This document shows positions 2,076 to 49,445 of a DNA stretch of 58,351 bases, in pieces. The notes under the pieces are model-generated. The model searched no databases. It had not been told where the DNA came from and saw nothing but the letters and a program-made list of their open reading frames with translations. Origin of the DNA: an uncultured Gammaproteobacteria bacterium (lineage in GTDB: Bacteria; Patescibacteriota; Microgenomatia; UBA12405; JAHJSD01); the NCBI GenBank assembly GCA_964468355.1, contig CAYXSV010000036.1:1-58351 (forward strand), in the 5' to 3' direction. A program made the position numbers and the translations under genes. Numbering within the stretch: position 1 is the first letter of the stretch; every line of letters begins with the position of its first letter.

Positions 2076-2272
2076 ATCCACACCTAAAAATTGATAAACA
2101 AAAATGTATCGGCTGTGGACTTTGCCCGTCAATGGATTCGGAAACATTTGAGATGGACTATGAAAAAGGAAAAGCAAAAATAAAAAAACAACCATTAAAA
2201 ATTACTGAAAAAATTAGTAGAGCAATTAGGCATTGTCCGGTGTCAGCAATAGAAATTAAAAAAAATGAATAA
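2072..2272 (+). CDS. Small 4Fe-4S-type ferredoxin
   Basis: CIGCGLCP cluster motif plus a distal C-P (HCPVSAI). 66 aa. 4-nt overlap with the upstream ORF. Confidence 0.7.
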   Translation: MNPHLKIDKQKCIGCGLCPSMDSETFEMDYEKGKAKIKKQPLKITEKISRAIRHCPVSAIEIKKNE

Positions 2273-3050
2273 ACAAAACCTGTCAGGATTATTTTTATTA
2301 CTTGCTGCCTGCAGTGGATTTTTAGCTGGAGTTATCTGGCAAAAATCAACTGCTCAACCAACAGCTCAACAAAACTACACTAAACAGCAAGAAAAAAATA
2401 TCCGGTTTAAACCGTCAAAGTCTGAACAACCAACGGTAAAAATTTATCTTAAAGGACGGCAAACAAACGAGGAAAATTTTAAAAAAAACATTAAAAAAGC
2501 AGCTGTTTTTTTTGGCGACAAAGTTAAATGGACACCTTACTATTATTTTTATTCAGATAATAATCCTAATGACCCAGGCAGATGCATCCAGACAGAAAAC
2601 AATTATCTATGTTCTTTAGAAAACCGATTTCAACTTAACCAAAACATTAGAGAAATATGCGCCTGGGAGTTAAGTGAAAATCGCCAAAACTGGTGGCAGT
2701 TTATTATTGAAACAGAAGAAAAGTGCCCGCTTTCAGAAATAGATCAATGTTGGCAAGCTGTAGCTAAGAATCTCAATCTGCCGGTTAATGAAATCCAGAA
2801 TTGTTTTAGCACCAGAGGAATAGATATTATTAAAAACCAAATAACAAATTTAAACAAAACAAAAATTGACCGCTTTCCAAAGATTGAAATTAATAATACT
2901 AATTTGCCTCTTTTAGCCGACGGTCACCAAATTACAACAAGTGTAAAAATTAATGAAAAATATTTTCGAAGCCAAGAAATTAACTCTGCCCAGTATTTTA
3001 TTTCGGCAATTTGCTCCTCTTTTGAACAAACACCGGAAATTTGCCAATAA
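2265..3050 (+). CDS. Hypothetical secreted/lipoprotein-like protein
   Basis: N-terminal LLLAAC lipobox-like signal. Several paired Cys. No recognisable catalytic motif. Confidence 0.45.
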   Translation: MNKQNLSGLFLLLAACSGFLAGVIWQKSTAQPTAQQNYTKQQEKNIRFKPSKSEQPTVKIYLKGRQTNEENFKKNIKKAAVFFGDKVKWTPYYYFYSDNNPNDPGRCIQTENNYLCSLENRFQLNQNIREICAWELSENRQNWWQFIIETEEKCPLSEIDQCWQAVAKNLNLPVNEIQNCFSTRGIDIIKNQITNLNKTKIDRFPKIEINNTNLPLLADGHQITTSVKINEKYFRSQEINSAQYFISAICSSFEQTPEICQ

Positions 3051-8411: not shown

Positions 8412-9365
8412 TTATTTATTGCCGGAGTGATACTTATTATGTGTCTCCTGAAGATGGCGGTCGGTAACATGTGTATAAATCTGGGTTGTAGAAATATTCT
8501 TGTGACCAAGCAATTCCTGAACGGCACGTAGGTCCGCGCCTTGTCTTAAAAGATCGGTAGCAAATGAATGACGCAAAACATGCGGAGTAACTTTAATCGG
8601 TATCTTTGCCTTCTTACGATACTTTTCTACCAACCGTTGGACCGAACGATCTGATAAACGCATTTCCTCATCATCCATTGAGGGATCCATTTTACCTGAA
8701 TACCTTATAAAAAGTGGATCGTAATGATCATCTCTGGCGGCCAAATATCGATCAAGCCATTTTACGGCTCTATCGGAAAGAAAGACTACCCTTCCTTTTT
8801 GTCCTTTACCAATCACTCCGACTTCACGAGTTTTTAAATTTATTTCATCCCTGTCCAACCCAACCAATTCGCTTACCCGCAAGCCAGTTGAAAACAGAGT
8901 TTCTAAAATTGCTTTATCTCTTAAACCAATTTTTGTTGATATTTTTGGTTGATTTAAAAATTTTAATAATTGTTCCGATTTAAGGAATTTTACCTGCCTT
9001 TCGTCTGTTTTAGGTAAATCAACTTTATCAGGAGTAACTTTTACGTTGTAATCATTCTTAATCAACCAACTTAGAAAGGATCTTAAGGCAATTATATGGT
9101 ATCCCTGGGTTTTTTTCTTTAAATAAGTCCCCTTACGAGTTTCAATTCTAGCCAGCCAAATACGGAATTTCCGCACATTTTTTGCGCTAAGATCGGATAG
9201 AGTAGGGGAGGATTCACTTTTTTTTGACTTCAAAAACTCATAAAAGCGTTTTAAATAATGGCGGTAATTTCTAATTGTTAACGGTGAACAGTTTCGCTCA
9301 ATTTCTAGAGAATCTAAAAATTTAGTTACTAAAGTCCATAAGTTTTTATTTTTAAAATTCGGCAT
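8412..9365 (-). CDS. Tyrosine site-specific recombinase, XerC/XerD-like
   Basis: C-terminal HVLRHSFATDLL...LLGHKNISTTQIYTHV (R-H-R-Y family motifs) and an N-terminal SAM-like core-binding domain. Confidence 0.88.
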   Translation of the reverse strand: MPNFKNKNLWTLVTKFLDSLEIERNCSPLTIRNYRHYLKRFYEFLKSKKSESSPTLSDLSAKNVRKFRIWLARIETRKGTYLKKKTQGYHIIALRSFLSWLIKNDYNVKVTPDKVDLPKTDERQVKFLKSEQLLKFLNQPKISTKIGLRDKAILETLFSTGLRVSELVGLDRDEINLKTREVGVIGKGQKGRVVFLSDRAVKWLDRYLAARDDHYDPLFIRYSGKMDPSMDDEEMRLSDRSVQRLVEKYRKKAKIPIKVTPHVLRHSFATDLLRQGADLRAVQELLGHKNISTTQIYTHVTDRHLQETHNKYHSGNK

Positions 9366-29424: not shown

Positions 29425-29506
29425 CGTAACATGAAACACGTAACCCGTAACACGAAATCCCAAAAAATATTATATGTTACATGTTACTTGTTATTTGTCA
29501 CGTTAC
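29425..29506. repeat. Empty heptad hairpin unit 1: left arm CGTAACA TGAAACA CGTAACC CGTAACA CGAAAT, 15-nt loop, right arm ATGTTAC ATGTTAC TTGTTAT TTGTCAC GTTAC
   Basis: The arms are imperfect reverse complements. The left arm (29425-29458) is repeated exactly at 29553-29586. Confidence 0.85.
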
Positions 29507-29552: not shown

Positions 29553-29621
29553 CGTAACATGAAACACGTAACCCGTAACACGAAATAAAAAAAGATTTTG
29601 CATGTTACTTATTACGTTAAC
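29553..29621. repeat. Empty heptad hairpin unit 2 (identical 34-nt left arm; shorter right arm ATGTTACTTATTACGTTAAC overlapping the stop codon of the 29617 gene)
   Basis: Perfect 34-nt direct repeat of 29425-29458. Confidence 0.85.
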
Positions 29622-30246
29622 TATTCTCGTCTAAACAAAGAATCCAATCTCTTGTATTTACCGTCCCATTGTCATCAAAATCATACCTGGTATCACTTGT
29701 CCCAAATTTTTCTTTAAATTCACTTTTATCACAACTGGTTACTTTTTCAGACGGTTCAGACGGTTCAACCGGTTGTGTAGTAGCTTGCGGCTTCGGGCTC
29801 GGTTCAGCTGCCGGCATGTCCGTCGGCTCGACAACCGGCTCCGGCTCTTGAGATGCTGCCCCTTCTTCCTCTTTAGTTTTAAAAGAATAAGGAATACCGT
29901 TATTATCAAAAATCTCATCGTCTATTCTTAACCTAAAATAATAAGTCGTCTCTGATTTAAGCGGTGATAAAACCACCCGATGAGTTGTCCCCGGCTGATT
30001 TTCCAAAGCTCTTAAAAGCAAGCTGGCTGGAGTTGTACCATACTCGACAGTACCTTGGACTTCATTATCAGTCTGCCAGCTGACGGTCGCTGATTTAACA
30101 TCGGCCTCAACCCGGACATTCTGCGGTTCTTTTCCACCGGAAGCACCACTTAAATAAGTTTTAGCAGTTCTTACTCCAACTGCAGCTAAAACTCCGGTTA
30201 ATAACAAAATTACAATTATAATGACTGATTTTACCTTTTTCTTCAT
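29617..30246 (-). CDS. Membrane-anchored FN3-like domain protein with a C-terminal single dockerin-like Ca-loop
   Basis: Start set at MKKKVKS (ATGA overlap with the upstream stop). FN3/PAP-N-like PQNVRVEADVKSATVSWQTDNEVQGTVEYG...TTYYFRLR. P/E-rich linker. C...YDFDDNGTVNTRDWILC. Confidence 0.6.
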   Translation of the reverse strand: MKKKVKSVIIIVILLLTGVLAAVGVRTAKTYLSGASGGKEPQNVRVEADVKSATVSWQTDNEVQGTVEYGTTPASLLLRALENQPGTTHRVVLSPLKSETTYYFRLRIDDEIFDNNGIPYSFKTKEEEGAASQEPEPVVEPTDMPAAEPSPKPQATTQPVEPSEPSEKVTSCDKSEFKEKFGTSDTRYDFDDNGTVNTRDWILCLDENS

Positions 30247-30914
30247 AATGCTAACACCCAACTAAATAATAACATAATTCCTCCACCCAATGCAGCGATA
30301 AGTAAAGGAGTTTCTATACCTGTTTCCGGAAGCTCGCTCGGTGTAGGTGTTGGTTCTTCAGGAGCAGAAGTCGGCTGGGGTTCTTCTGTTGGTTCCGGTT
30401 CTCCGGCCCCGATTACGTAACTGCCGCTGCCGCAAGCAGCACAGTCAATTAAATCATTTCCCTGTTGATCCCAAATTGCAGAGTCAGTATCAACCCCGGA
30501 TTCACATAAAAAAGAAACTGAAGCTGTCCCTTCGGCAGTTGCTTCAAAACTAATAGTTGCAATTTCACCAACTCCGCTGTTGGTTACCAAGGCCTGTTCA
30601 GAAAAAGAATAAATCGTCAGCTTACCATTAGCGTTTTCAATATTATAATCAAACCCGGAAAAGAAATCACCTGCTGAAACCTGGTTAACTTTTAATTTAT
30701 TCTGGTCAAAACTAATTAAAGCGTCAGCGGCCATTGCTTCCTTATCTCCGGTGTCAATCTGAACAACCACATCAAAATTATCGCCAACATTATAATTACC
30801 TTCCGAGGGTTCAAAATACAAACGCGGACCGGCCTTAGCACCTACGGCAGATGCATGCCATATAAAAACAAAAACGATTATTGGTAATCCTAACCATTTT
30901 AATATTTTGTTCAT
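30243..30914 (-). CDS. Cohesin-domain protein with a C-terminal LPETG sortase sorting signal
   Basis: Signal peptide. Cohesin-like YFEPSEGNYNVGDNFDVVVQIDTG...ALISFDQNKLKV...GEIATISFEATAEGTASVSF. PT linker. LPETG (nt 30318-30332) followed by a hydrophobic tail. Confidence 0.7.
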   Translation of the reverse strand: MNKILKWLGLPIIVFVFIWHASAVGAKAGPRLYFEPSEGNYNVGDNFDVVVQIDTGDKEAMAADALISFDQNKLKVNQVSAGDFFSGFDYNIENANGKLTIYSFSEQALVTNSGVGEIATISFEATAEGTASVSFLCESGVDTDSAIWDQQGNDLIDCAACGSGSYVIGAGEPEPTEEPQPTSAPEEPTPTPSELPETGIETPLLIAALGGGIMLLFSWVLAL

Positions 30915-31562: not shown

Positions 31563-32687
31563 TTAAAGTTCGTCTTCGTATTTTGTACTCAGTGTTTCCA
31601 GGAAAAAGACAACATCCTGTGAATTGACAATCCCGTTAAAATTAATATCTTCTTCGATTTCACCTTCAACCATTAATGCTTGTTTCAAAGTGGTAAAATC
31701 AGCGCTGTTAACTACACCGTTTTGGTCAATATCCCCGGGCTCCAAATTAAGAGCAGTCCAATCAAACTCGTTTTCGCCGGCATTCAAAGTAATACCTTCC
31801 TCGCCGAGCCAGCAGTGTTCCACCTGCTCATCCTCACAAAAACGGCGGGCTAAATGGACCGGACCTTTTATTAAAACTGCATAGTTGTCCCCCGGCTCAA
31901 CCCCGACTAATTCTAAACTACCTGTCCCCACGGCTTGGTTATCAAATTCAACCATTACATCTTTATACCTTTGACTGATTCCATTACCTTTCACAATTAC
32001 GTCAACCGGCTGTGTTCCAATATCTTCAACAATTTTTTCCTGATTATTAACCAAATATTTTGTTCCTCCAAATGTAATTTGAAAAGACAATTCCGGCCAG
32101 CCGGCAGGCGGTTCAGTAGGAATTGGCGTCGGTTCGCCCCCTAAAACATCAATCTCCGCGTCGGAAAATGAACCAATATCCAAAACTCTATCATCAACTC
32201 CTTCAACCCCCTTTGACCCGACAAATGAAACAGCTGCTGTTTTAGACAGAGTACTACTGCCTTCATTTAATAATTTAAATTTAAAACCAGCTAAATTGAA
32301 CGGTTCAGCCGGAATTTGGCCGTCTGATTTTAAATATGAAACGGTTTCAACTACCCCCTCGTCAACTACCTGAGAAACGCCGTTATAATTCTCATTTAAT
32401 TCCACCGATTGAAATTCCAGAATATTAGGGTCATAACTAATACTGAAATGACCGCCGCTGACTAAATATTCTTCAGGCAGTACCTGCAATTGAACATTAG
32501 CTGTTTCTTGATCAAGGTCAACTTCTTGAACATCCGGAAGAAGCTGTAAGTTAATTTCTCCATAGGCAGCTTCTCTTCTTACTTCCTGGGTCTGCTTTAC
32601 CAAAATTAAACCGGCAAAGACGGATATAAAAGGAATTAAAAGTAACAAAACCAATATCCTATTTTTATAATCTTTTTGATTAGTCAT
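31563..32687 (-). CDS. Cohesin-like, beta-sandwich and canonical type-I-like dockerin protein
   Basis: N-terminal TM helix plus QTQEVRREAA. HFSISYDPNILEF cohesin-like region. C-terminal DIDQNGVVNSADFTTLKQAL...DINFNGIVNSQDVVFFLETL (two Ca-loop/helix repeats). Confidence 0.7.
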   Translation of the reverse strand: MTNQKDYKNRILVLLLLIPFISVFAGLILVKQTQEVRREAAYGEINLQLLPDVQEVDLDQETANVQLQVLPEEYLVSGGHFSISYDPNILEFQSVELNENYNGVSQVVDEGVVETVSYLKSDGQIPAEPFNLAGFKFKLLNEGSSTLSKTAAVSFVGSKGVEGVDDRVLDIGSFSDAEIDVLGGEPTPIPTEPPAGWPELSFQITFGGTKYLVNNQEKIVEDIGTQPVDVIVKGNGISQRYKDVMVEFDNQAVGTGSLELVGVEPGDNYAVLIKGPVHLARRFCEDEQVEHCWLGEEGITLNAGENEFDWTALNLEPGDIDQNGVVNSADFTTLKQALMVEGEIEEDINFNGIVNSQDVVFFLETLSTKYEDEL

Positions 32688-32689
32688 TT

Positions 32690-33994
32690 TTAAAATTTAG
32701 GCAACTCACTATACCACTGTTCAACATCATCTTCACTTAAAATACCGTCGCAATTAAAGTCACCGTATAAATTATCACTGCCTAACTTATAATCATCGTA
32801 CCAGCCGGCAAAATCTTCCATATTAACTGTTCCGTCACAGTCGTAATCGGCTTTAGACTCAATTTTAGTTCCGTCCGGACACGGCTTGCACCCGGTTTGG
32901 GGCTCCGTCGTGGCTGTCGGCTCCGGTGTATTAGTTGCACTCGGCGGCATCGTGGCTGTCGGTTCCGGCGTATTGGTTGCACTTGGCGGCATCGTGGCTG
33001 TCGGCTCCGGTGTATTGGTTGCACTCGGCGGTCTTGTGTTTGTCGGTGTCGGCGTACTTTCCGTACAATCCTGGACAAATACCGCTGTCCCTCCGGTATA
33101 ATCAATATCAACCGACTTTCCGTCTTCAGTAGTCCCGGCAACAATAGATTTACTCTCATTCAGATTAAAATTAAACCGCCCCGGTTCAGTGCCGGTAATC
33201 TCAACACCAATTCTAAAGCTCCTCGGCGGGTTACCACCGGCATAAAGCGAAGTTACAAGCAGCTCATTATTTCTGGCATCATAACCTCCCTCCCCCCACT
33301 TACTATCAAAAGTTACATTTTTAATTGTGCTTCTGGTCGAATCATAATCAAAATACAACTGCAAACCGGACATGCTTTTTCCTGAATCGCCTGAAACGGT
33401 TATTGTTCCCGTTTCTTGTGTGCAAAGATGCAAACTGCTCGGCTGGGAAATTGTAATTGTCTCACCTGCCGGACTGTCCGTCGGAGTGGAAGCCGGTGTA
33501 TTAGTATTAACCGGACTATCACAATCAACCACCTTTACCGTGGTATCACCGGATGCACTAATATTCATACTGTCATCTTCAAGTCCACTCATAAAACTTT
33601 TCCCGGTTAATAACCTAAAACTTGAATTGCCTAAACTTTTACCCCTTAAAGTAACATTAAATTGAATATTTTTTTGAGGATTTGCAAACATATGAGAACT
33701 AACACTTAAATCACCCTCAAAAATACTCCAAGTTTTGTTGACATCTTCAATCTCGACTTTACTATCATCAAATCCAAAGTCGAAAGCATAACTGGTTATT
33801 TTCTGGTTTGAACTGCCGCTTACCGCAAAAGTCTCCGTATCTCCCAAACACACTTCAACTTCTGAGGGAAGCTGAATATTCCCACCGCCTGCCGCCCCTC
33901 TTCTTGTTTCTAAATTTTCTCGAACAACATAACCGGCGAAGACAAGACTTAGCAAGCCAACTATACTGATAAAAGCTAATTTTAAGTTATTCAT
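32690..33994 (-). CDS. Protein with two Cys-stapled cohesin-like modules, a PT-repeat linker and a Cys-framed dockerin-like C-terminus
   Basis: N-terminal TM helix plus ENLETRRGAAGG. Modules VEVCLG...VVDC and HLCTQ...VQDC. Three copies of PPSATNTPEPTATM. CKPCPDG...DYDCDGTVNMEDF...DFNCDGILSEDDV. Confidence 0.65.
   Translation of the reverse strand: MNNLKLAFISIVGLLSLVFAGYVVRENLETRRGAAGGGNIQLPSEVEVCLGDTETFAVSGSSNQKITSYAFDFGFDDSKVEIEDVNKTWSIFEGDLSVSSHMFANPQKNIQFNVTLRGKSLGNSSFRLLTGKSFMSGLEDDSMNISASGDTTVKVVDCDSPVNTNTPASTPTDSPAGETITISQPSSLHLCTQETGTITVSGDSGKSMSGLQLYFDYDSTRSTIKNVTFDSKWGEGGYDARNNELLVTSLYAGGNPPRSFRIGVEITGTEPGRFNFNLNESKSIVAGTTEDGKSVDIDYTGGTAVFVQDCTESTPTPTNTRPPSATNTPEPTATMPPSATNTPEPTATMPPSATNTPEPTATTEPQTGCKPCPDGTKIESKADYDCDGTVNMEDFAGWYDDYKLGSDNLYGDFNCDGILSEDDVEQWYSELPKF
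32910..33031. repeat. 42-bp tandem repeat, about 2.9 copies (encodes the PPSATNTPEPTATM linker)
   Basis: Units at 32910-32951, 32952-32993 and 32994-33031 with a few substitutions. Confidence 0.9.
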
Positions 33995-34050: not shown

Positions 34051-36006
34051 TTAATCACAATTAGAATGTTCCGTTGGACACCATCGGGCATACCATATTT
34101 GATGATCCGAAACAGTAATATCCCCGTCGCAATCATAATCTCCATATAATTCATCTTTATCTACTCTCTGTCCGTCTAATTTAACTTTAGAATACTGCTG
34201 TGCCCATCGGCCGTAATCGACATTTTGTTTACCGTCGGTATCACAATTAAAACTAGATGTTCTAACAGGAGCAAAACTGCCGTCCGGACACGGCTTGCAT
34301 CTTTCTTCCCCACCCCCGACAACAATTTTCTGACTCAATAGGTTATTTTCTTCGTTAACTTCCTCAATCTGGTCTTCACGATCAACCCATACATAAACAT
34401 CGTGTTCGCCGGCTTCATCAAAGACATAATCATACGACCAGTCAAACTTTTTATCCGGTATCAACCAAACATGATGACCGTAATATGAAGTTTCCGGTGT
34501 TGCTTGCGTCGGGGGCTGTTGCTCCGGGTCTATATATAAATAAGTAGTAAAATCCCTAGTTGCCATTTGACCAATATTTTTAATCTCGGCCGTTATACTT
34601 ACTTCATCTCCGGGCTGCGGATTAGACGGGCTGTAACTAATACTAGAAATTGTCAAATCCGGCATTCTGTCATCCTCCACACAGGCCGAATCCGGGGCCT
34701 CAAATTCTATTAAATAAGAACCCTCGGGTAGTTCGCTTCTGCTCCATCTAGCATTGGGAATATAAGGATTCCAATACTCGCCGTAGGTTATCGCCGAATG
34801 CGGCGGATTGCCCCTTAATTGCAAAAATTCATCATTTTCACATTTTTCTCTTTCACACAACCCAACATATAATCCATTTCTTTCATCTGTACTAATTATG
34901 GTAGTCATTTTAGCTCCTATTCTTGAATCTTCTAAAACCGGCTCAAAAGGGTTTGGCGGCCAAGCTACATACCAGGTACTTACTTCAATATCCGCTATAC
35001 TTCCGTCCTCACATACCGCCGCTGTCTCTATATCCCACGATAAACTCTCTGAAACTATTGATACTACCCGGTTACAGTTACTACACTCAGCCGTAGCATT
35101 ATTACAAGTTCCAACTGGATTACCTGTACACCAATTATCCATTTCGTCATATACATTAGCTACAACATAATATTTACCCTGGGAAACACCTGAAACATCC
35201 CACTCTGCTTCCCAACCGTCACTGCCATTATTATCAGTGTCAATTACCGTCCAATTATTACTGTCACAGTAATAACTCTCAGTAGCATTCTCCTTGTATT
35301 CTGCGTAGGCAAATGTTACTTCTTTTAAATCGCCGTCCTCATCACTCGCTGTTGCCTTCACCAATGTCTTATCCTCACTAATAACGGAATTTACGGATAA
35401 ATTAGTGCATTCAGGTACATTTTCGCCTCCTGAGGCCGGCGTATTGGTTGGGTCAACCGGTGGAGCAGGCGTAGGCGTTGGGTCAACCGGCGGTGCAGGT
35501 GTGCTTGTCGGCTCTTCACCACAAATACAATCGGTGTCAGTTAAACAATCCGGGTTTCTGCAAACACCTGAACTTGATATTATTTCTCTTTCAAAATCAG
35601 TTGTTTCAATTAACTCTTGTGCTAACTGATCACTTTCTCCCATCACAACTCCGCCGCTGACCGTCTGACAGTTTCCATCTGGGCCACATACGCAATCCTC
35701 TCCTTCCGGAGGCATCACATCCGGACAGTAAACACCAGTATTCCTTGGTACACAATCTTGTCCGCACCACATACAATCCCTGTCTGAACTACAGCCCTCT
35801 TTATAACAAACTAAACCGCTTCCACACTGTGAATCGTCTGAGCAAGGTTGATTACAATCACTGACAGCGGCCTTGCGGGTTTCCTGCCTTTGCTGAACTA
35901 AGTTGATTGCCGCCGGTAAAGCAATTCCTAAAATTAGTAAACCCAAAATTATCGGCAATTGAGACATGCCCTTTTGCTGATATTTTTTATTTTTGATTAA
36001 ATTCAT
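34051..36006 (-). CDS. Large secreted cysteine-rich modular protein (Cys-knot modules, Ig-like, CARDB-like, Cys-framed dockerin-like C-terminus)
   Basis: N-terminal TM helix plus QQRQETRKAA. CNQPCSDDSQCGSGLVCYKEGC... modules. CARDB-like PDLTISSISYSPSNPQPGDEVSITAEIKNIG. The C-terminal 82 aa CKPCPDG...WCPTEHSNCD is a paralog of the 36546 gene's C-terminus. Confidence 0.65.
   Translation of the reverse strand: MNLIKNKKYQQKGMSQLPIILGLLILGIALPAAINLVQQRQETRKAAVSDCNQPCSDDSQCGSGLVCYKEGCSSDRDCMWCGQDCVPRNTGVYCPDVMPPEGEDCVCGPDGNCQTVSGGVVMGESDQLAQELIETTDFEREIISSSGVCRNPDCLTDTDCICGEEPTSTPAPPVDPTPTPAPPVDPTNTPASGGENVPECTNLSVNSVISEDKTLVKATASDEDGDLKEVTFAYAEYKENATESYYCDSNNWTVIDTDNNGSDGWEAEWDVSGVSQGKYYVVANVYDEMDNWCTGNPVGTCNNATAECSNCNRVVSIVSESLSWDIETAAVCEDGSIADIEVSTWYVAWPPNPFEPVLEDSRIGAKMTTIISTDERNGLYVGLCEREKCENDEFLQLRGNPPHSAITYGEYWNPYIPNARWSRSELPEGSYLIEFEAPDSACVEDDRMPDLTISSISYSPSNPQPGDEVSITAEIKNIGQMATRDFTTYLYIDPEQQPPTQATPETSYYGHHVWLIPDKKFDWSYDYVFDEAGEHDVYVWVDREDQIEEVNEENNLLSQKIVVGGGEERCKPCPDGSFAPVRTSSFNCDTDGKQNVDYGRWAQQYSKVKLDGQRVDKDELYGDYDCDGDITVSDHQIWYARWCPTEHSNCD
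35447..35506. repeat. 30-bp tandem duplication encoding the TPAPPVDPT(P/N) linker
   Basis: GTTGGGTCAACCGGTGGAGCAGGCGTAGGC / GTTGGGTCAACCGGCGGTGCAGGTGTGCTT. Confidence 0.85.
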
Positions 36007-36521
36007 TTAAATATACTCATTATCCATTTCCATAACTTTAAAAACTCACTATTTTTTTCACAGTTAATTACTTTAACATCACTTTCTCCGGAAACACTGA
36101 TGTTTATGTCTTCGTCTTCTATTCCTCCCATCCAGCTGTCAGTTTCTAGAAATTTAAATTTTGAATTTCCAATTTTGGCACCTTTTAAGTTAACATTAAT
36201 CTGGAAATCTTTTTGGGGGTTGTTAAATATATGAGAACTCACTTTTAAATCACCATCTTTAATGCTCCACGTGCGATCAACATCTTCTATCTCCACCATA
36301 TTTTGATCAAAATCAAAAGCAAACACGTAACCGGTTATTTCTTGATCAGCCCGGCTTGTAACAGTTAATTTTTTAATTTCACCTAAACAGACTTCGACCT
36401 GAGGAGGAAGAATAATTTTTCCCTCAGCTTTAACCGGTCTTACAAAAAATAAATCTTGTTTAATAATAAGGTGAAGAAATATCAAAACTATTAAGAAAGA
36501 ACCGTATTTGAGTTTTTTCAT
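36003..36521 (-). CDS. Secreted Cys-stapled cohesin-like single-module protein (paralog of the N-terminal module of the 32690 gene)
   Basis: PPQVEVCLGEIKKLTVTSRADQEITGYVFAFDFDQNMVEIEDVDRTWSI...VKVINC aligns with PSEVEVCLGDTETFAVSGSSNQKITSYAFDFGFDDSKVEIEDVNKTWSI...VKVVDC. ATGA overlap with the next gene. Confidence 0.55.
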   Translation of the reverse strand: MKKLKYGSFLIVLIFLHLIIKQDLFFVRPVKAEGKIILPPQVEVCLGEIKKLTVTSRADQEITGYVFAFDFDQNMVEIEDVDRTWSIKDGDLKVSSHIFNNPQKDFQINVNLKGAKIGNSKFKFLETDSWMGGIEDEDINISVSGESDVKVINCEKNSEFLKLWKWIMSIFK

Positions 36522-36545: not shown

Positions 36546-38873
36546 TTAATCACAATTTGAATGTTCTGTCGGACACCATCTGGCATACCATATTTGATGA
36601 TCAGAAACATTTATTTCTCCGTCACAATTGTAATCTCCGTATAATTGGTTACTAGGCACTTGTTTACGTTCAATTACAACCGCGTAATACTGCTGAGCCC
36701 ACCGACCGTAGTCAACATTCTCTTTACCATTCGTATTGCATTTAAAACTGGATGTATTTTGAGAAGCGAAACTACCATCCGGACACGGTTTACAACCTTT
36801 TCCGGGTCCCGGCGGTACAGTTGTCGGCTCAGATTCAGAAATACATTTACTATAATCGCTTGCCCATTTATAGCCGGTCGGCGGATAAAGCTCACAATTT
36901 ACAGCTCCGGAAGTGCCCTCTGTCTTTCCGCACCCTGAATGTCCCGGGCAATAATCAGATACACATTGAACAGCACAATTATCTTTTGTTGGACTACCAC
37001 AATCTGCATCTGTTTGACAAGTTTGTCCTGGTCTTACCGTTGGCGAAAGAGTATTTGTCGCCCGCGGCGCTCTTGTCGGAGTATTTGTCGGTGTTTCTTC
37101 ACATGCACTATCAGGACATTGACGATAACCACCGGGATTACTCGTATACCAATCACAACCATAACCACAAGTTGACGTTACACAATAGCAAATTTCTTCT
37201 GGTGGTGTTGGTGTATTTTCCGGATTTTCACATCTATCCGCCCAGCAAACTTCAATCGGGAAATAGGAATGCGGACCACAAGTTAAACCCTCCTTACACT
37301 CGTTATTTTGTAAGCATGTATCGCCACAATCTTTATTCCCGGCAGACGGCGTATTTGTCGGTGTTTCTTCCGGGATACAACATACCTCATTGTGGCCGCG
37401 GCAATCAGTAGGATCCACTGCCTTTTCACCAGTTTTACACCCTCCTACTCGACAAACCCCAGCATCAGAATCTCCCAGATAACCGCAAGTTTGTAATTTT
37501 GGTTCAGGCGTATTCGTTGGTTCAGGTTCACAACAATATTTATATCCTCCACCAAAATCTACTCCACACTTTTTAGCATACCAAACTTGACCTCCACAAT
37601 TTGCCGGTGGCACACATGACTCCTCTGGATCACAATCTACAAATTCCGGTTCACAAGCACATCCACCACCCACCATCTCACAACTCTCACCTGAAGGACA
37701 ATCCCCTACACACTCATTGCCATTCGGTGTCGACATCATACGGCATACACTTGGTGTATTTGTTGGAGCTCTAGGTGTATTTGTTGGCCGTGGCCCACAA
37801 TAACAGACAGTACCAACACAGTAATAACTGTTCTTGCAACGACTGCAATTAGGGAGAACAGGGTCAGTATATGTTTGACACCTGGTTCCATCTTGCAAGC
37901 CGGCTGACGGTGTAGGCGTAAAATTATAACAAGTACAACATGAGTCAACATCTCGACTTGTCGGGCTTGAACAGTGTCCGCCATCAACACCATGAACTTT
38001 TTGGCATGCTTCTGTACATGAAGAATATTCACCTAAACAACAAATACAATTATCGCAGGCCCGACATGTACCAGGCATTCCTTGCCTTAAATCACAATAT
38101 TTTGATTGACATTCGGAATTAGAACTACATTGCCAGCCATTTGGCTTCGGCGTACTTGTCGGCTGTGGTTTTGTTCGGCATGTACCAGGCATCCCCTGAC
38201 TTAAATCACAATAACTAGAACAACATTCCGAGTTGCTACCACACTGCGAACCATTGGATTTACAACTTGGTGTATTTGTTGCTCGCGGTCTTGTTGTATT
38301 TGTCGGTTGAGGTTTTGGGGTATTGGTCGGATAAGGTGAACAATTTGCATTACATGTACCTTCACTGGAATAAGTTCCGTCATAACCTTGGACACAATAC
38401 CCCAGAGAACGAGAACACTTCCATTTTAAATCAACTTCTCCATAACACTCACATTCTCCGTCAATAGTTGGATGGGGTTTACATTCCCTACCCGAAGCAC
38501 AGGTACCTACACATTGAAATCCTGCCGGAGTAAATTCTCCTCTGCACGTTTCTTCATAAGGCGTTGCCGTCGCTGGCGGTGGAGCTGTCTTACATTCGGC
38601 ACATATACTTGAATGCTGAGTACATTTTGGGCCACAATAACCTCTATCTACCCAATTACCGTCAACACACTCATAATCATGGCAATCACCTTGATTACAA
38701 TGTGTGCCCGTCAAGCCACCACATGTACTTGCCGCTTCTTTTCTTGTTTCCTGGCTTTGCTGGGTTAATCTTAATGCCGCCGGTAAAGCGACTCCCAAAA
38801 GTAGCAAACCAATTATAATCGGAACCTGCGCACTTCCGCGTTGATTAAAAATATTTTTAATTCTTGTTAACAT
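36546..38873 (-). CDS. Hyper-cysteine-rich (about 88 Cys in 775 aa by hand count) modular secreted protein with PTNTP linkers and a Cys-framed dockerin-like C-terminus
   Basis: N-terminal TM helix plus QQSQETRKEAA. About 10 Cys modules, each with an even Cys count, separated by P/T-rich linkers. Internal tandem module NG[SW]QC[GS]SNSEC.S.YCDL.QGMPGTCR x2. C-terminal CKPCPDG...WCPTEHSNCD. Confidence 0.65.
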   Translation of the reverse strand: MLTRIKNIFNQRGSAQVPIIIGLLLLGVALPAALRLTQQSQETRKEAASTCGGLTGTHCNQGDCHDYECVDGNWVDRGYCGPKCTQHSSICAECKTAPPPATATPYEETCRGEFTPAGFQCVGTCASGRECKPHPTIDGECECYGEVDLKWKCSRSLGYCVQGYDGTYSSEGTCNANCSPYPTNTPKPQPTNTTRPRATNTPSCKSNGSQCGSNSECCSSYCDLSQGMPGTCRTKPQPTSTPKPNGWQCSSNSECQSKYCDLRQGMPGTCRACDNCICCLGEYSSCTEACQKVHGVDGGHCSSPTSRDVDSCCTCYNFTPTPSAGLQDGTRCQTYTDPVLPNCSRCKNSYYCVGTVCYCGPRPTNTPRAPTNTPSVCRMMSTPNGNECVGDCPSGESCEMVGGGCACEPEFVDCDPEESCVPPANCGGQVWYAKKCGVDFGGGYKYCCEPEPTNTPEPKLQTCGYLGDSDAGVCRVGGCKTGEKAVDPTDCRGHNEVCCIPEETPTNTPSAGNKDCGDTCLQNNECKEGLTCGPHSYFPIEVCWADRCENPENTPTPPEEICYCVTSTCGYGCDWYTSNPGGYRQCPDSACEETPTNTPTRAPRATNTLSPTVRPGQTCQTDADCGSPTKDNCAVQCVSDYCPGHSGCGKTEGTSGAVNCELYPPTGYKWASDYSKCISESEPTTVPPGPGKGCKPCPDGSFASQNTSSFKCNTNGKENVDYGRWAQQYYAVVIERKQVPSNQLYGDYNCDGEINVSDHQIWYARWCPTEHSNCD

Positions 38874-38882
38874 TTTTATTTT

Positions 38883-39125
38883 TTATTGACAGCAATAAGG
38901 CGTCTCACTTGGACAATCGCCTTTGTTCCATTTCATATTTAATAAGTGACAATACTGCTCTTTACATTCTGTTTGGCAGGGATAACCAACCTGAGGCATC
39001 GAACTGCCGGCCGCCCCGCGCCGTGTTTCTTGAGTCTGCCTAACCAAAGCAACCACACCAGTCAATATAATTAAAACGAAAAGTATTAATAGAAGTTTTA
39101 AAATTTTCTGTTTACTTTGATCCAT
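38883..39125 (-). CDS. Small (80 aa) precursor: TM helix plus RQTQETRRGAAG motif plus a 6-Cys C-terminal peptide
   Basis: First gene of the operon. The C-terminal PCQTECKEQYCHLLNMKWNKGDCPSETPYCCQ has six Cys. Confidence 0.5.
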   Translation of the reverse strand: MDQSKQKILKLLLILFVLIILTGVVALVRQTQETRRGAAGSSMPQVGYPCQTECKEQYCHLLNMKWNKGDCPSETPYCCQ

Positions 39126-39153: not shown

Positions 39154-39183
39154 ACTTTAGACGAATATACTCTCGTTTGTCAA
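39154..39183 (-). promoter_or_regulatory. Candidate promoter for the surface operon (TTGACA-18-TAAAGT on the minus strand)
   Basis: Exact -35 hexamer but a weak -10. This is the only intergenic gap longer than 60 nt at the 5' end of the operon. Confidence 0.3.
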
Positions 39184-39230: not shown

Positions 39231-40598
39231 ATGGGAAAATTGCCGACGATACTAGCCATGCTTCTCATTATCCCTATTGGTTTATACGCCGTATTTCAAA
39301 ACCATGATTTGCGGCGGTCTGCGTTCGGTAAAAAAGCAGACATTAAAATCGACGTCTCCAAACCCGGGGGTTTAATTTCAAAATCTCTCTGGCAAAACTT
39401 TTCTCAAGGCGGAGAAGAACCAAAAGACATGATCGCTCCGGTCAAAAACGAGGTTGCCAATCTTCAGCCGGAAATCATCCGCATTGACCATATTTTTGAC
39501 TATTATGTTGGCATTAACGGTCGGGTTTATGACTTTTCAAAATTAGACCAAATAGTCCAAACTATTCTTGATACCGGTGCTAAACCAATGTTTTCTTTAT
39601 CTTACATGCCGCCGGAAATTGCTGTTGACGGCCAAAAGACTTCTCCGCCCCAAAACTGGAATCAATGGAATGAACTGGTTAAAGCGACTATTTCGCGTTA
39701 TTCAGGACAAAACAATTTTAATTTAAACAATATTTATTATGAAGTCTGGAACGAGCCGGATTTATTCGGCGGCTGGCACTATGGCCGGGAACCGAACTAT
39801 TTAACACTTTATTATCATACGGTTAAATCCGCCCAAGAAATAGAAAACGTCAACAATTTTAAAATCGGCGGCCCGGCAACCACCGGTTTCTACCCTAATT
39901 GGATCAAGGCCCTATTTGATTATTGCTACAAAAACAAGTTGAGAATTGATTTTGTTTCCTGGCACCATTATTCTAAAAATATTAATGAATATTTAAGAGA
40001 TTTTGAAAAATTAAATCAAATTTTGACCGATTACGGCGATTACTTTAATGTCGAGCGCTTAATTACCGAATACGGACCCGACTCGGAAAATTCCCCCTGG
40101 TATGACAATCATTTGGGTGCTGTTCACAGTTTAGCCGGAGTAACTAAATTAATGGGAAAAGTCCATCGCATTTTTGCTTTTCAGCTTAAAGACGGTCCTT
40201 CACCGGAAAGTAAAAAATATTGGGGACGGTGGGGTTTAATAAGCCACGAAAACCACGAAATAAGTTTAAAGCCGAGATATTACGCTTATCAATTTTTAAA
40301 TCAACTAGAAGGTCAACAGCTTCCTCTGGAAGGCGAGGGTTCCTGGGTATCGGCAGCAGCAGTTAAAAAAGATAATAAAATTCAAGTTTTAGTTGTTAAT
40401 TACGACCCGTCAAACAACCATTACGAATCCCCGCCGATTACATTAGAAAATATTGAGCCGGGCAACTATATTTTCCGCCAAATTAGATTCCAGGGACAAG
40501 CGGTTGCCTCAAGAGAAAAAATTGAAAAAACAACAATAACTAAAAAGTTTATTCTTCAACCCAATTCAGCAATTTTACTGGAATGGATTAAATTGTAA
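39231..40598 (+). CDS. Membrane-anchored clan GH-A glycoside hydrolase, GH39-like
   Basis: N-terminal TM helix. YYEVWNEPDLFGGW (acid/base NEP) and LITEYGPD (nucleophile E) in a (beta/alpha)8-like spacing. Confidence 0.6.
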   Translation: MGKLPTILAMLLIIPIGLYAVFQNHDLRRSAFGKKADIKIDVSKPGGLISKSLWQNFSQGGEEPKDMIAPVKNEVANLQPEIIRIDHIFDYYVGINGRVYDFSKLDQIVQTILDTGAKPMFSLSYMPPEIAVDGQKTSPPQNWNQWNELVKATISRYSGQNNFNLNNIYYEVWNEPDLFGGWHYGREPNYLTLYYHTVKSAQEIENVNNFKIGGPATTGFYPNWIKALFDYCYKNKLRIDFVSWHHYSKNINEYLRDFEKLNQILTDYGDYFNVERLITEYGPDSENSPWYDNHLGAVHSLAGVTKLMGKVHRIFAFQLKDGPSPESKKYWGRWGLISHENHEISLKPRYYAYQFLNQLEGQQLPLEGEGSWVSAAAVKKDNKIQVLVVNYDPSNNHYESPPITLENIEPGNYIFRQIRFQGQAVASREKIEKTTITKKFILQPNSAILLEWIKL

Positions 40599-40644: not shown

Positions 40645-41022
40645 ATGGGAAAAATAAATTATTTTACCGACTTAAAAGCTTGGCAAATAAATCACCAAGT
40701 AGCTTTAAAAATATATAAATTAACGGAAAATTTTCCATCAAATGAAAAATACGGCCTAACTGATCAGCTACGAAGAGCAGCATCTTCTGTTACTGCTAAC
40801 ATTGCAGAAGGTTGGGGACATTACCATTTTGCTAATCGCTTAAGATTTTATTACAACGCCCGTGGGTCAAATTGTGAGGTGCAAAACTTTCTTATTTTAG
40901 GAAAAGATTTGGAATATATCGATAAATCTAAGTACAAAAAAATTGTAGAAGAAGTTTTCGAAGGATTTAGAGTATTAAACGGTTTGATTAAATCAGTCAA
41001 AAAACTCAATAAAAACAAGTAA
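40645..41022 (+). CDS. Four-helix-bundle protein (23S rRNA intervening-sequence protein / Avd-like family)
   Basis: FTDLKAWQ...ALKIYKLT..FP..EKYGLTDQLRRAASSVTANIAEG...F..RL.FYY.ARGS..EV matches the family pattern. Confidence 0.85.
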   Translation: MGKINYFTDLKAWQINHQVALKIYKLTENFPSNEKYGLTDQLRRAASSVTANIAEGWGHYHFANRLRFYYNARGSNCEVQNFLILGKDLEYIDKSKYKKIVEEVFEGFRVLNGLIKSVKKLNKNK

Positions 41023-47262: not shown

Positions 47263-47820
47263 TTAGTCAAAATCAACCCAGTGTTTGGAGGCAGTCGGGC
47301 CCTTTTGACCTTGATATTTACTTTTTAATTTTTTACTTCCATAAGCATTTTCAACTTTGCTGGTCATTTTATAAAAGACTATCTGCGCAATCCGCATACC
47401 GGCATACATTCGAATCGGCAGGCGTGAAATATTGGCAATTTCAAAAGTAAGCCAGCCGGAAAAACCGGGGTCAACATAACCGGCGGTAGCATGAACAATC
47501 AATCCCAGCCGGCCCAAAGAGCTTCTACCCTCCAGTTTTGCCGCTACACTTAACGGCAAAGTCACTTTTTCCGCAGTCGAGCCAAGAATAAACTCTCCGG
47601 GATGCAAAACAAATCCAGCTTCTTTAATTTTAACCACCCGTGAAACATCCTCCTTTTTCCGAACGTCTATTTCGCCTTGATTCCAGTTATCAAATACACG
47701 CACCTCTTCGCTTAACTCTAAATCCAAACTGGAAGGTTGAAGATTTTCCGGTTTAAAAGGGTCAATTTTAATCTTTCCGCTCTTAATCTTATTTTTAATA
47801 TCTTTATCTGAAATAATCAT
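47263..47820 (-). CDS. dcd: dCTP deaminase (dUTPase superfamily)
   Basis: MIISDKDI...I.P......QP.S.DL.L, GRSSLGRLGL, and GFSGWLTFEI motifs. Confidence 0.88.
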   Translation of the reverse strand: MIISDKDIKNKIKSGKIKIDPFKPENLQPSSLDLELSEEVRVFDNWNQGEIDVRKKEDVSRVVKIKEAGFVLHPGEFILGSTAEKVTLPLSVAAKLEGRSSLGRLGLIVHATAGYVDPGFSGWLTFEIANISRLPIRMYAGMRIAQIVFYKMTSKVENAYGSKKLKSKYQGQKGPTASKHWVDFD

Positions 47821-48581
47821 TCCTTTAATTTACCAAAGACTAATAACCGTTTCAATATTGTCCCCGGCGGCCAGCAGGTCTGAAGAATTATCTCCTCACG
47901 TCCCGGCTGATAATCAGTTAAGTAAGAAATATCTTTGGCTCCGACAATCTTCTTATCAAAAATTTGATAAGTATAAGGCCGGTTTTGGTAAACCAAGTGA
48001 ACTTCATCACCCGGCTCCAGCTTATTTAACAAAAAGAAAACCGCATTATAACGGACCACATTCCATTCGGCATTAGTTGAATGAGCAAAAAGAAAAACCG
48101 GCTTAGTTGACCCGGGTAAACCGCTTCCGGCTGCATGAGCGACACCGTCTTTTAAAACTTCCTGATAAATTTCAGGTTTGCCGGGATCAATGTTGGGAAA
48201 TACTTGAGCACTGGACTCTAATTTGGGAATATAAACTGAAAAATCCTTGTTTATAACCGGCCAGTCATCCGGAACTTCTGGTATCGGCATTGGAGTCGGT
48301 GTTAGGGTCGGAGTCGGATTACCTCGTAGGGACAAGTCGCGACTTGTCCCTACATCCACTCTCTGCCAATGATATCCAGCCATTGCTCTGGCCAACGGCA
48401 GCCAAAGATAAGTTAAATACCCTAAACACAAAATAACCGCTCCCGTTCCCAAACCAAAAACAAATGTTCTTATTTTTGACGGGTTATAAAAAATAAGCTG
48501 TTTTTTACCTTTCTTTGGTTTAACTGCCTTCTTTAATTTCGGATCAAAAAAATCTTTCATGGTTGCTTTCTTATTATACAT
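47817..48581 (-). CDS. Sortase-family transpeptidase (membrane-anchored)
   Basis: N-terminal TM helix, PT linker, VFLFAHST (His), ILQTCWPPG (TLxTC-type Cys), and a downstream Arg (KRLLVFG). Confidence 0.8.
   Translation of the reverse strand: MYNKKATMKDFFDPKLKKAVKPKKGKKQLIFYNPSKIRTFVFGLGTGAVILCLGYLTYLWLPLARAMAGYHWQRVDVGTSRDLSLRGNPTPTLTPTPMPIPEVPDDWPVINKDFSVYIPKLESSAQVFPNIDPGKPEIYQEVLKDGVAHAAGSGLPGSTKPVFLFAHSTNAEWNVVRYNAVFFLLNKLEPGDEVHLVYQNRPYTYQIFDKKIVGAKDISYLTDYQPGREEIILQTCWPPGTILKRLLVFGKLKE
48326..48353. repeat. Perfect 28-nt palindrome GTAGGGACAAGTCG|CGACTTGTCCCTAC inside the sortase linker coding region
   Basis: 14+14 nt self-complementary. Encodes ..GTSRDLSLRG.. between the TM helix and the PT linker. 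Confidence 0.95.
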
Positions 48582-48758: not shown

Positions 48759-49445
48759 ATGGAAAACGTCATTCCGGGCAAGGCCATAATTACTGGTATT
48801 ACTACTATCTTAATTGGTATTGCAGCTATCGTGGCTGGAGTTGCTTTTCTTCTCAGTTTAAGTTTAAGTTTGGCAAGTCCTGTCGGCGCTTATATGTATG
48901 GTGAAGAACAACCGACTTCCCAACTTATAGTTGACAAACAAATCACTACTTCGGAAAACATAAATTGGCAGGATAATCTACCTGCTACCCAAGAAGTGCT
49001 CCGAGAAGGTGATTTAGTAAAATTTAAAATTACTATAAAAAACAGCGGAGACAAAGATTTAATAAATATAGAAGTAATTGATTCTCTGCCTGAATACTTA
49101 ACTCCTGTTTTTAATCCCGGAGAATATGATCAGGAAAATAATAAAATAAAGTGGAAAATTGAAAAATTAAACGCCGGTGACCAAAAAACATTTGAGATTC
49201 GGGCCCATATTGATTCAAGCAACCAAGAATTAATTGAAGGGACGCAGTGCTTGATTAACAAAGTAGAAGCAGTTGCTGAAACCGGCGAATCCGACCAGGA
49301 CACTTCTTCTTTTTGTATTACTACTCCTCAGGTGCTTCCTGAAGCCGGCAGCGGCGTCAGCGAAATATTAGTCGGAACAGGATTTGCGGCAATGATCGGC
49401 CTAGCCGGTGTAATTTTAAGAAAATTCGGCCGCGGCCAAATTTAA
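48759..49445 (+). CDS. Surface protein with a DUF11/CARDB-like beta-sandwich and an LPEAG sortase sorting signal
   Basis: GDLVKFKITIKNSGDKDLINIEVIDSLPEYL. LPEAG (49335-49349) followed by a TM segment and an RKFGRGQI tail. Lies next to the sortase gene. Confidence 0.65.
   Translation: MENVIPGKAIITGITTILIGIAAIVAGVAFLLSLSLSLASPVGAYMYGEEQPTSQLIVDKQITTSENINWQDNLPATQEVLREGDLVKFKITIKNSGDKDLINIEVIDSLPEYLTPVFNPGEYDQENNKIKWKIEKLNAGDQKTFEIRAHIDSSNQELIEGTQCLINKVEAVAETGESDQDTSSFCITTPQVLPEAGSGVSEILVGTGFAAMIGLAGVILRKFGRGQI

Follow-up and report, generated by a model that had tools for sequence, protein, structure and literature searches.

A cysteine-rich modular protein with a dockerin-like C-terminus, encoded among cohesin genes of a likely CPR bacterium

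Introduction

The stretch of DNA analysed here, 58,351 nucleotides of contig CAYXSV010000036.1 (the window), contains an open reading frame (ORF) at 36546–38873, on the minus strand, that starts with ATG and encodes a 775-residue protein (the target) with 88 Cys. The protein consists of an N-terminal leader, about 13 Cys-rich modules on Pro/Thr-rich linkers, and a dockerin-like C-terminus. Its gene stands second in a cluster of nine closely packed genes on the minus strand, running from 39125 down to 29617, several of which encode cohesin-like proteins. We consider it probable that the target is a disulfide-stabilised binding protein, built like beads on a string, that docks through its dockerin onto a cohesin scaffold anchored in the cell wall. 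The dockerin-like domain, the cluster of cohesin, dockerin and sortase genes, and the leader, all three overlooked in a preliminary description of this DNA, are the features that tell what the target is for.

How bacteria of the candidate phyla radiation (CPR, or Patescibacteria) attach to their hosts is largely obscure, and most of their surface proteins are without annotation. The concrete model that this locus would provide has three components: a cohesin scaffold anchored to the wall, cargo that bears dockerins, and, within that cargo, tiny disulfide-locked modules. In the mechanism we propose, the target would be exported via its leader and would fold oxidatively outside the cytoplasm into about 13 mini-domains with 2–5 disulfide bonds each, which the flexible Pro/Thr linkers would keep apart. 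The dockerin-like domain would plug into the cohesins of the cluster (encoded at 36003, 32690, 31563, 30922 and 30243), and the cohesin at 30243 would be fixed to the cell wall through its LPETG motif by the sortase encoded at 47817–48581. The outcome would be a cellulosome-like surface assembly whose cargo is a set of multivalent, small and protease-resistant binding modules, not a glycoside hydrolase. We infer the disulfide formation, the cohesin–dockerin pairing, the surface display and the binding function from the features described below.

Results and Discussion

The C-terminus resembles dockerins

The C-terminal domain (residues 690–775; 36549–36806, minus strand) starts with GCKPCPDG and ends with an extra Cys pair, CPTEHSNC. 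In the search set, 37 other proteins have C-termini that align with some 85 residues of it (38 proteins if the target is counted). In a 22-sequence alignment of these C-termini, four Cys are invariant: two in a CxxC with which the domain opens, and one within each of the two loops. The loop Cys replaces the usual Gly or Asp-adjacent position of each Ca2+ loop (D-x-N-C-D-G), and the four together suggest two disulfide staples. The third pair, CPTEHSNC, is present in the target and in a paralogue encoded at 34051. The second loop of the target, DYNCDGEINVSD (D-Y-N-C-D-G-E-I-N-V-S-D), is canonical.

The profile of this C-terminal family matched about 20 dockerins in the PDB and almost nothing else (best E = 1e-3), and 10 of the 22 aligned C-termini matched Pfam Dockerin_1 (PF00404; best E = 3.9e-5). 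A phmmer search of the PDB with the whole target returned one match only, a dockerin at E = 1.1, while a Pfam and NCBIfam scan of the target gave nothing at E ≤ 1. Judged at the level of its family, the target C-terminus appears to be a Cys-stapled, dockerin-like domain.

Cohesins and a sortase signal are encoded in the same cluster

What could such a domain dock onto? Cohesin modules occur in the same organism, with Pfam matches in the cluster proteins encoded at 30243 and 31563 and weak matches in those at 32690 and 36003. Immediately downstream of the target gene lies a gene (36003–36521, minus strand) for a 172-residue cohesin-like protein, a candidate docking partner. The family profile led by this protein matched cohesins only in the PDB (best E = 5.8e-5). 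It is followed by the paralogue of the target (34051–36006, minus strand), which has 651 residues with 32 Cys and shares the leader and the dockerin type of the target, having an I-type Cys module and a CARDB domain as well; its leader and C-terminus are 73–87% identical to those of the target at the DNA level. The preliminary description had noted the knot-like start of the paralogue, and its first module does share the C-x3-C-x5-C-x5-C spacing of target module I.

The remaining genes of the cluster, also on the minus strand, encode an adaptor scaffoldin-like protein in which two cohesin-like modules are accompanied by a PT linker and a CKPC-type dockerin (32690–33994), a protein combining a cohesin with a canonical type I dockerin (31563–32687; Pfam Dockerin_1 E = 1e-6, Cohesin E = 3.3e-5), a further cohesin-like protein (30922), and an anchoring cohesin (30243–30914; Pfam Cohesin E = 3.6e-12). 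The last of these carries LPETG at residue 195 and a hydrophobic tail, a sortase signal. The final gene (29617–30261) encodes an FN3-like (Pur_ac_phosph_N) protein with a short dockerin-like tail. At the other end, directly upstream of the target, the first gene (38883–39125) encodes a secreted protein of 80 residues, with QETRRGAA as a short leader and a single 6-Cys module (C-x3-C-x4-C-x12-C-x6-CC). No catalytic domain was recognisable in the dockerin-bearing proteins of the cluster, which are composed of Cys modules, cohesins or cohesin-like modules, CARDB, and the FN3-like domain with its dockerin-like tail. The best sigma-70-like site, a candidate by consensus match (39154–39183, minus strand; TTGACA-18-TAAAGT; 10 of 12 positions), lies upstream of the first gene. 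Within the 32690 gene there is a 42-nt tandem repeat (32908–33031; 3 copies, 91% matches), encoding the linker unit PPSATNTPEPTATM three times.

The LPETG motif and hydrophobic tail of the 30243 protein, with a sortase gene in the window (47817–48581, minus strand; Pfam Sortase E = 9e-19), point to a surface-anchored scaffoldin. The sortase gene is 9 kb from the target and 17 kb from the gene for the LPETG cohesin, which its product presumably anchors. It is adjoined by a gene for a DUF11 protein (48759–49445, plus strand) that ends with LPEAG, a transmembrane segment and RKFGRGQI, and this protein and the 30243 cohesin are likely to be two sortase substrates.

The same cluster arrangement, next to YbeY and DnaX, was found in two other genomes. 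In this comparison the scaffold genes were 66–72% identical (DnaX, 69%); the target was about 28% identical overall and its modules were rearranged. Conservation of the scaffold is accompanied by high variability of the cargo. The 80-residue protein is far better conserved than the target, being 67.5% identical in locus L001 and present also in L002, in the same position.

A shared leader marks the cluster proteins

The leader of the target (residues 1–49; 38727–38873, minus strand) has a basic n-region, QRG, the hydrophobic stretch SAQVPIIIGLLLLGVALPAAL and then RLTQQSQETRKEAA. It aligned without gaps over 46 positions in 29 of the 57 proteins examined, with the consensus QKG-xAQ(L/I)P-IIGLLLxG(V/I)A(L/I)PAA-xKLVQQxQETR(R/K)xAA (about 46 residues). 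Within the window it is confined to proteins of the cohesin/dockerin cluster: a second copy lies at 35860–36006 (minus strand), and short forms are found at the 5' ends of the genes at 38883–39125, 32690–33994 and 31563–32687. No Pfam or NCBIfam model matches it. The leader is presumed to be a secretion or sorting signal, and could be a dedicated sorting signal. Together with the dockerin, it indicates that the target is probably extracytoplasmic. Its G-x-A-Q-x-P start loosely recalls class III (prepilin-type) signals.

The Cys-rich segments are shuffled units with paired Cys

The 88 Cys of the target make up 11.35% of its residues, compared to a mean of 0.70% for the 52 other ORFs of the window. 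The preliminary description had counted about 88 (about 11%) by hand, and had reported that the ten segments between the P/T-rich linkers each contain an even number. Cutting at these linkers reproduced its counts (8, 10, 20, 6, 12, 6, 6, 6, 8 and 6). In 200,000 random placements of 88 Cys, all ten counts were even in 0.2% (P = 0.002). A finer, homology-guided cut into 14 target modules was also even throughout (8, 6, 4, 6, 4, 10, 6, 6, 6, 6, 6, 6, 8 and 6 Cys). PTNTP occurs six times in the target, and Pro and Thr account for 58% of linker residues. The tandem module with a period of about 114 nt, also reported there, is real: 22 of 27 residues are identical between residues 207–233 and 245–271, and the DNA copies (38062–38141 and 38176–38255) are 76% identical at a spacing of 114 nt. 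It is reported by a pairwise repeat finder and is absent from the Tandem Repeats Finder list.

The target family is very rare. Only 49 relatives were detected at E ≤ 0.001 when 1.84 billion representative proteins were scanned with HMMER, and most of these match the target via the leader or the C-terminal domain alone. Searching GTDB genomes and JGI contigs with the whole target found no relative, and tblastn found none in phages. We looked for recurrence of the modules by an iterative search with each target segment against the proteins from the HMMER scan. Segments A, B1/F, C, D, E, G, I, J and K were all found elsewhere, in varying order and copy number and with their Cys conserved, and in the module alignments the Cys form the invariant columns. 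The Cys-rich segments are real evolutionary units.

All modules lie on the minus strand. Module A (residues 50–95; 38589–38726) has 8 Cys and homologous copies in proteins P0014 and P0026. Modules B1 (residues 106–146, 6 Cys) and B2 (residues 147–181, 4 Cys) occupy 38331–38558, and B1 is an internal paralogue of F (it matches target residues 376–409 with E = 4e-17). C1 (residues 203–233; 38175–38267) has 6 Cys and is knottin (inhibitor cystine knot)-like, and C2 (residues 244–271; 38061–38144) is its four-Cys tandem copy, at the 114-nt period. Module D (residues 272–318; 37920–38060) has 10 Cys and a homologous copy in P0048. Six Cys each are found in E, F and G (residues 326–361, 375–410 and 411–450; 37524–37898) and in H, I and J (residues 460–501, 513–551 and 559–593; 37095–37496). 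E-F-G are collinear with residues 237–364 of P0002, a protein that has four copies of J and three of G. Module K (residues 612–682; 36828–37040) has 8 invariant Cys.

The Cys also vary in pairs. Of 19 C-module copies, 5 have both Cys I and Cys IV and 14 have neither; no copy has just one of the two (Fisher P = 9e-5). Two more Cys pairs, in the E-type module, appear and disappear jointly. The total number of Cys is even in 39 of 48 related proteins (binomial P = 8e-6). Paired gain and loss together with even counts is the pattern expected of disulfide-bonded mini-domains, and supports the idea that the segments behave as independently folding units of this kind. Thus, the independent mini-domains of the preliminary description are borne out by shuffling, invariant Cys and paired gain and loss, but the disulfide bonds that it gave them are a reading of the Cys pattern.

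Could the Cys bind metals instead, in the manner of metallothioneins, zinc ribbons or Fe–S proteins, so that the target sequesters or senses metals under anoxia? We think this very improbable. The Cys content is indeed very high and includes seven CxxC motifs, the habitat is likely to be anoxic, and no disulfide oxidoreductase is encoded in the window. However, six Cys, the number in most modules, is not a multiple of four (10 of the 14 have 6 or 10), and most modules are without paired CxxC...CxxC motifs; metal clusters are therefore disfavoured. The target has only 11 His, its Cys are gained and lost in pairs, and C1 is confidently modelled as a cystine knot. The Cys counts, the scattered CxxC motifs and the paired covariation likewise fail to place the target among the metallothioneins or zinc ribbons.

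That the ORF is decaying or spurious, or a chimera of the assembly generated by the repeats in common with the paralogue, has in our view a negligible probability, and no positive evidence favours it. The 2.3-kb frame is intact. Two metagenome runs, independent of each other and labelled aquatic and freshwater, yield contigs that cover the gene without any substitution or indel, and one single contig of 17.9 kb spans it; being identical and intact in both, the ORF is neither an assembly artefact nor visibly decaying. Degeneration of the ORF, the doubt that the preliminary description had raised against itself, is further contradicted by the intact syntenic relatives, and the Cys are invariant across homologues.

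Module C1 is predicted to be a knottin

Structures were predicted for single modules only (C1 and K). The Cys of C1 are arranged as C204-x6-C211-x5-C217-C218-x3-C222-x9-C232, which is the C-C-CC-C-C framework of inhibitor cystine knots, in about 31 residues. Its AlphaFold2 models, based on a 19-sequence alignment, had a mean predicted local distance difference test score (pLDDT) of 87.5–89.4 over five models (best 89.4). When the PDB was searched with Foldseek, all 22 matches were of knottin type (SOTI-III, conotoxin, maurocalcine, spider toxins and colipase), of which 21 had template modelling (TM) scores of 0.55–0.78 and root-mean-square deviations mostly of about 2–3 Å; the remaining match was a 15-column fragment (TM 0.37). 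The best was the knottin trypsin inhibitor SOTI-III (4aoq; probability 0.97). The Foldseek E-values were ≥ 0.09 and individually not significant, as the query is only 34 residues long. A profile of the C copies matched maurocalcine best in the PDB (a scorpion knottin, 1c6w; E = 0.0025), followed by bleogen pB1 (5xbd) and Dickkopf. The co-occurrence of Cys I and IV matches the I–IV bond of the cystine knot. C1 thus combines the six-Cys framework with a knottin fold in its model, and as the knottin-only match list, the framework and the I/IV covariation agree, we predict with high confidence that it is knottin-like. Most C copies have four Cys and are without the I–IV bond, so these are not true knots.

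The other modules gave no such result. K is the most conserved module, with 62–68% identity between otherwise divergent proteins and many invariant residues other than Cys, which points to a specific interaction. It occurs in 4 of about 185,000 species genomes, and one JGI contig carries it too. Its AlphaFold2 model had a pLDDT of 69, and neither a profile search (best E = 0.38) nor Foldseek (best E = 1.3) found anything significant in the PDB; nor did Pfam give a match. The weak Foldseek matches of K are all EGF, TNFR-CRD or TIL domains, and do not suffice to place it in any of these families. Profiles of G and J found no meaningful relatives in the PDB. For pacifastin, Pfam matched neither the target nor the paralogue at E ≤ 1, and the Cys spacings of B1, E and F, read by eye, differ from the pacifastin consensus. 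Only 1 of the approximately 13 modules is tied to a known fold, and the label 'EGF-like' is therefore unproven. The preliminary description had called the modules knottin/EGF-like and had looked to structure prediction and Foldseek, module by module, to decide. The knottin half of the label stands for C1 (a confident fold, with pLDDT 89.4 and 22 of 22 matches to knottins), but the EGF half found no such support, as K (pLDDT 69) has no significant match to any fold.

Modules are appended to other proteins

Searching Pfam with ten Cys-rich relatives gave matches to dockerin or cohesin only, and none for the Cys modules. These modules also occur on P0012 and P0014, proteins with a Pfam-significant cohesin or dockerin, and the knottin-like C module is fused to a subtilase in P0019 (Peptidase_S8, E = 2e-51). 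The CKPC-type dockerin is present on the clostripain-family (Peptidase_C11) proteins P0020 and P0022, one of which has a VWA domain too. The presence of modules on a subtilase, and of the same dockerin type on clostripain-family peptidases, suggests accessory binding domains, not free toxins.

These fusions would also suit an array of protease inhibitors, tethered by the dockerin and directed against the peptidases of a host or against the organism's own docked peptidases, as would the identity of the best fold match of C1, a trypsin inhibitor, and the report of pacifastin-like inhibitor folds in CPR bacteria (PMC13388995). We regard such an array as unlikely. The fold of C1 is equally close to ion-channel toxins and colipase, and is therefore silent on function; no inhibitor family was matched by sequence when Pfam was searched with the target and ten relatives; and no reactive-site loop is conserved among the C copies, in which the conserved residues are the Cys, one Ser and N-G.

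Alternatively, the target could be a polyprotein precursor, whose linkers are cleaved to release knotted peptides as toxins, antimicrobials or signals. Plant cyclotide/knottin precursors with several domains provide an analogue. Many different small knotted modules separated by uniform linkers, the resemblance of C1 to venom and antifungal knottins, and the stand-alone, one-module protein encoded just upstream of the target all fit a precursor. On the other hand, a C-terminal dockerin is sensible only on an intact, tethered protein, similar PT linkers are present in the neighbouring scaffoldins, where release is not expected, no dibasic or other recognisable processing sites occur at the module borders, and the modules are also appended to enzymes. 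A precursor is thus improbable in our estimate.

Is a specific ligand needed at all? An inert, rigid and protease-resistant spacer or stalk, or a part of a surface layer or matrix, serving to set a distance or to provide mechanical strength, would have the same beads-on-a-string layout with Pro/Thr-rich linkers, and could tolerate the great variation in module content between relatives; high Cys content has been proposed to give rigidity in Peribacteria proteins (PMC4736985). What makes this quite unlikely is the diversity of about 12 module families, which spacing does not need, and the conservation of K across divergent proteins, with its many invariant non-Cys residues.

A binding function and the evidence against it

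The most likely job of the target, and our best guess, is to bind the surface of a host cell, through a glycan or a protein, which would fit the epibiotic lifestyle of CPR bacteria. Host-surface adhesion is suggested here by analogy with a dockerin protein that is essential in a cultivated Saccharibacterium, for which targeting of host glycans has been proposed (PMC10633639), and with the Cys-rich surface proteins of Peribacteria; the latter, and the pacifastin-like proteins of CPR bacteria, are thought to mediate attachment (PMC4736985, PMC13388995).

Several observations weigh against a docked binding protein. The C-terminus of the target itself falls below every Pfam threshold (no match at E ≤ 1), and we therefore call the domain dockerin-like and place it in its family through relatives. 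The first loop of the target, CNTNGKENVD, is degenerate, being one residue short and without acidic positions, while relatives carry first loops nearer to canonical (DYDCDGTVNMED). On its own, the candidate partner encoded at 36003 matches Pfam Cohesin weakly (E = 0.035). No carbohydrate-binding module or adhesin family was matched by the target modules (Pfam with the target and ten relatives; G and J profiles against the PDB), and among the RNA-seq runs searched for the target gene, none was found to contain it. The taxonomic evidence is indirect: relatives with a K module are labelled Gammaproteobacteria/Pseudomonadales in three cases (L003–L005) and Candidatus Shapirobacteria in one (L006), and the former labels look doubtful. 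Finally, the window is without DsbA, DsbB, VKOR or a CxxC-thioredoxin, as shown by Pfam on 55 ORFs and a CxxC scan. This agrees with the preliminary description, which recognised no DsbA/DsbB-like gene there, and means that oxidative folding would need an enzyme encoded elsewhere. As CPR bacteria are mostly anaerobes, and no such enzyme is in the window, oxidative folding of the target is assumed.

The sole thioredoxin-fold candidate in the window is a secreted protein of 261 residues (2265–3050, plus strand). Pfam recognises a thioredoxin-like domain in it (VSR_TRX, E = 5e-7), but none of its nine Cys form a CxxC motif, and it is probably not a classical oxidoreductase. In CPR bacteria generally, an MdbA-like oxidoreductase with VKOR is enriched (bioRxiv 10.1101/335083). 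How a small-genome, probably anaerobic bacterium would make about 44 disulfide bonds in one protein is a question that the target raises.

With a GC content of about 37% and dense housekeeping genes, the window is likely to be of CPR (Microgenomates-type) origin. The loci L003, L004 and L005 have about 39% GC and encode Cys-rich proteins with a K module; a dockerin-like end is present in L003 and L004, and also in L006.

Comparison with known systems

The cluster resembles cellulosomes and similar assemblies (Clostridium thermocellum; ScaB/ScaC of Ruminococcus flavefaciens) in having a C-terminal, two-loop dockerin-like domain on the cargo, cohesin scaffoldins, an adaptor with both cohesin and dockerin, Pro/Thr linkers, and an LPXTG cohesin with a sortase gene. 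A sortase-anchored scaffoldin exists in the R. flavefaciens system. Unlike in cellulosomes, the cargo is an array of Cys-knot mini-domains, the dockerin family has four invariant Cys, with a degenerate first loop in the target, and the host is apparently a small-genome CPR bacterium. No dockerin-bearing glycoside hydrolase was found as cargo, and the cluster is therefore not a cellulosome proper. A GH39-family glycosidase, the only glycoside hydrolase in the neighbourhood, is encoded next to the cluster (39231–40598, plus strand) and also at the adjacent position in L002; it has a leader-like N-terminus and no dockerin, and its gene and the cluster are divergently transcribed.

The best PDB matches of the cohesin-like profile of the cluster are to the cohesin of Clostridium perfringens NagJ (2jh2/2ozn), which also serves to assemble proteins and not to degrade cellulose. 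The C. perfringens system assembles secreted glycosidase toxins, whereas the partners here would be Cys-rich modular proteins and scaffoldins. C1 is similar to knottins (maurocalcine, SOTI-III, conotoxins, spider toxins, bleogen pB1) in framework, length and predicted fold, but it is bacterial, is one bead of a 775-residue mosaic, and has no functional residues in common with them.

Arrays of this kind had been described as uncommon in bacteria, which overstates the case: CPR bacteria were noted earlier to have cysteine-rich extracellular proteins (PMC4736985), six-Cys domains resembling pacifastin are reported from CPR bacteria as well as myxobacteria (PMC13388995), the KNOTTIN database lists 'bacterial knottins' (PMC5753296), and the CPR oxidoreductases cited above (bioRxiv 10.1101/335083) bear on the same point. 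The Peribacteria (PMC4736985) and pacifastin-like (PMC13388995) proteins are, like the target, secreted, multi-domain and very Cys-rich CPR proteins with small, disulfide-rich domains of eukaryotic type. They differ in belonging to other lineages and sequence families, with no Pfam or sequence link to the target, and in Cys content (about 7%, compared to 11.4% here). A word search found neither dockerin nor cohesin in the main texts of the two papers. Secreted cysteine-rich repeat proteins (SCREPs) and eukaryotic mosaics (DkTx, mucins, VWF with TIL/EGF) share with the target the tandem arrangement of independently folded, disulfide-rich domains on linkers, and multivalency. Unlike their one repeated domain, the target has about 12 module families, and the fold matches of K to such domains are not significant (best E = 1.3).

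Taken one by one, Cys-rich CPR surface proteins, bacterial knottins and non-cellulosomal dockerins are already known. No paper retrieved by full-text literature searches on these subjects reports the combination of a Cys-stapled dockerin with about ten unannotated module families and a dedicated leader. If the target is a docked binding protein, the use of cohesin–dockerin pairs would be widened beyond enzyme display. The locus also adds to the bacterial repertoire some ten families of disulfide-rich domains that had no annotation, including at least one that is knottin-like; mini-proteins of this sort are prized as stable binding scaffolds. A bolder reading, which we offer tentatively and think doubtful, is that a CPR lineage displays a shuffled, fast-evolving library of about a dozen new disulfide-knot families, including true knottins, on a sortase-anchored scaffold by means of a dedicated leader of about 46 residues, to recognise or attack its host. 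If true, this would be a bacterial counterpart of eukaryotic mosaic receptors and of the knottin repertoires of venoms, and a source of new ultrastable binding scaffolds.

Other features of the window

A 63-nt direct repeat (29425–29487 and 29553–29615; 86% identical, 128 nt apart, rich in GTAAC/GTTAC) sits in non-coding DNA that separates the end of the cluster (29617) from a yqeY-like gene. The window also contains a gene for a 23S rRNA intervening-sequence protein (40645–41022, plus strand) and one for a tyrosine recombinase of the XerC/D type (8412–9365, minus strand).

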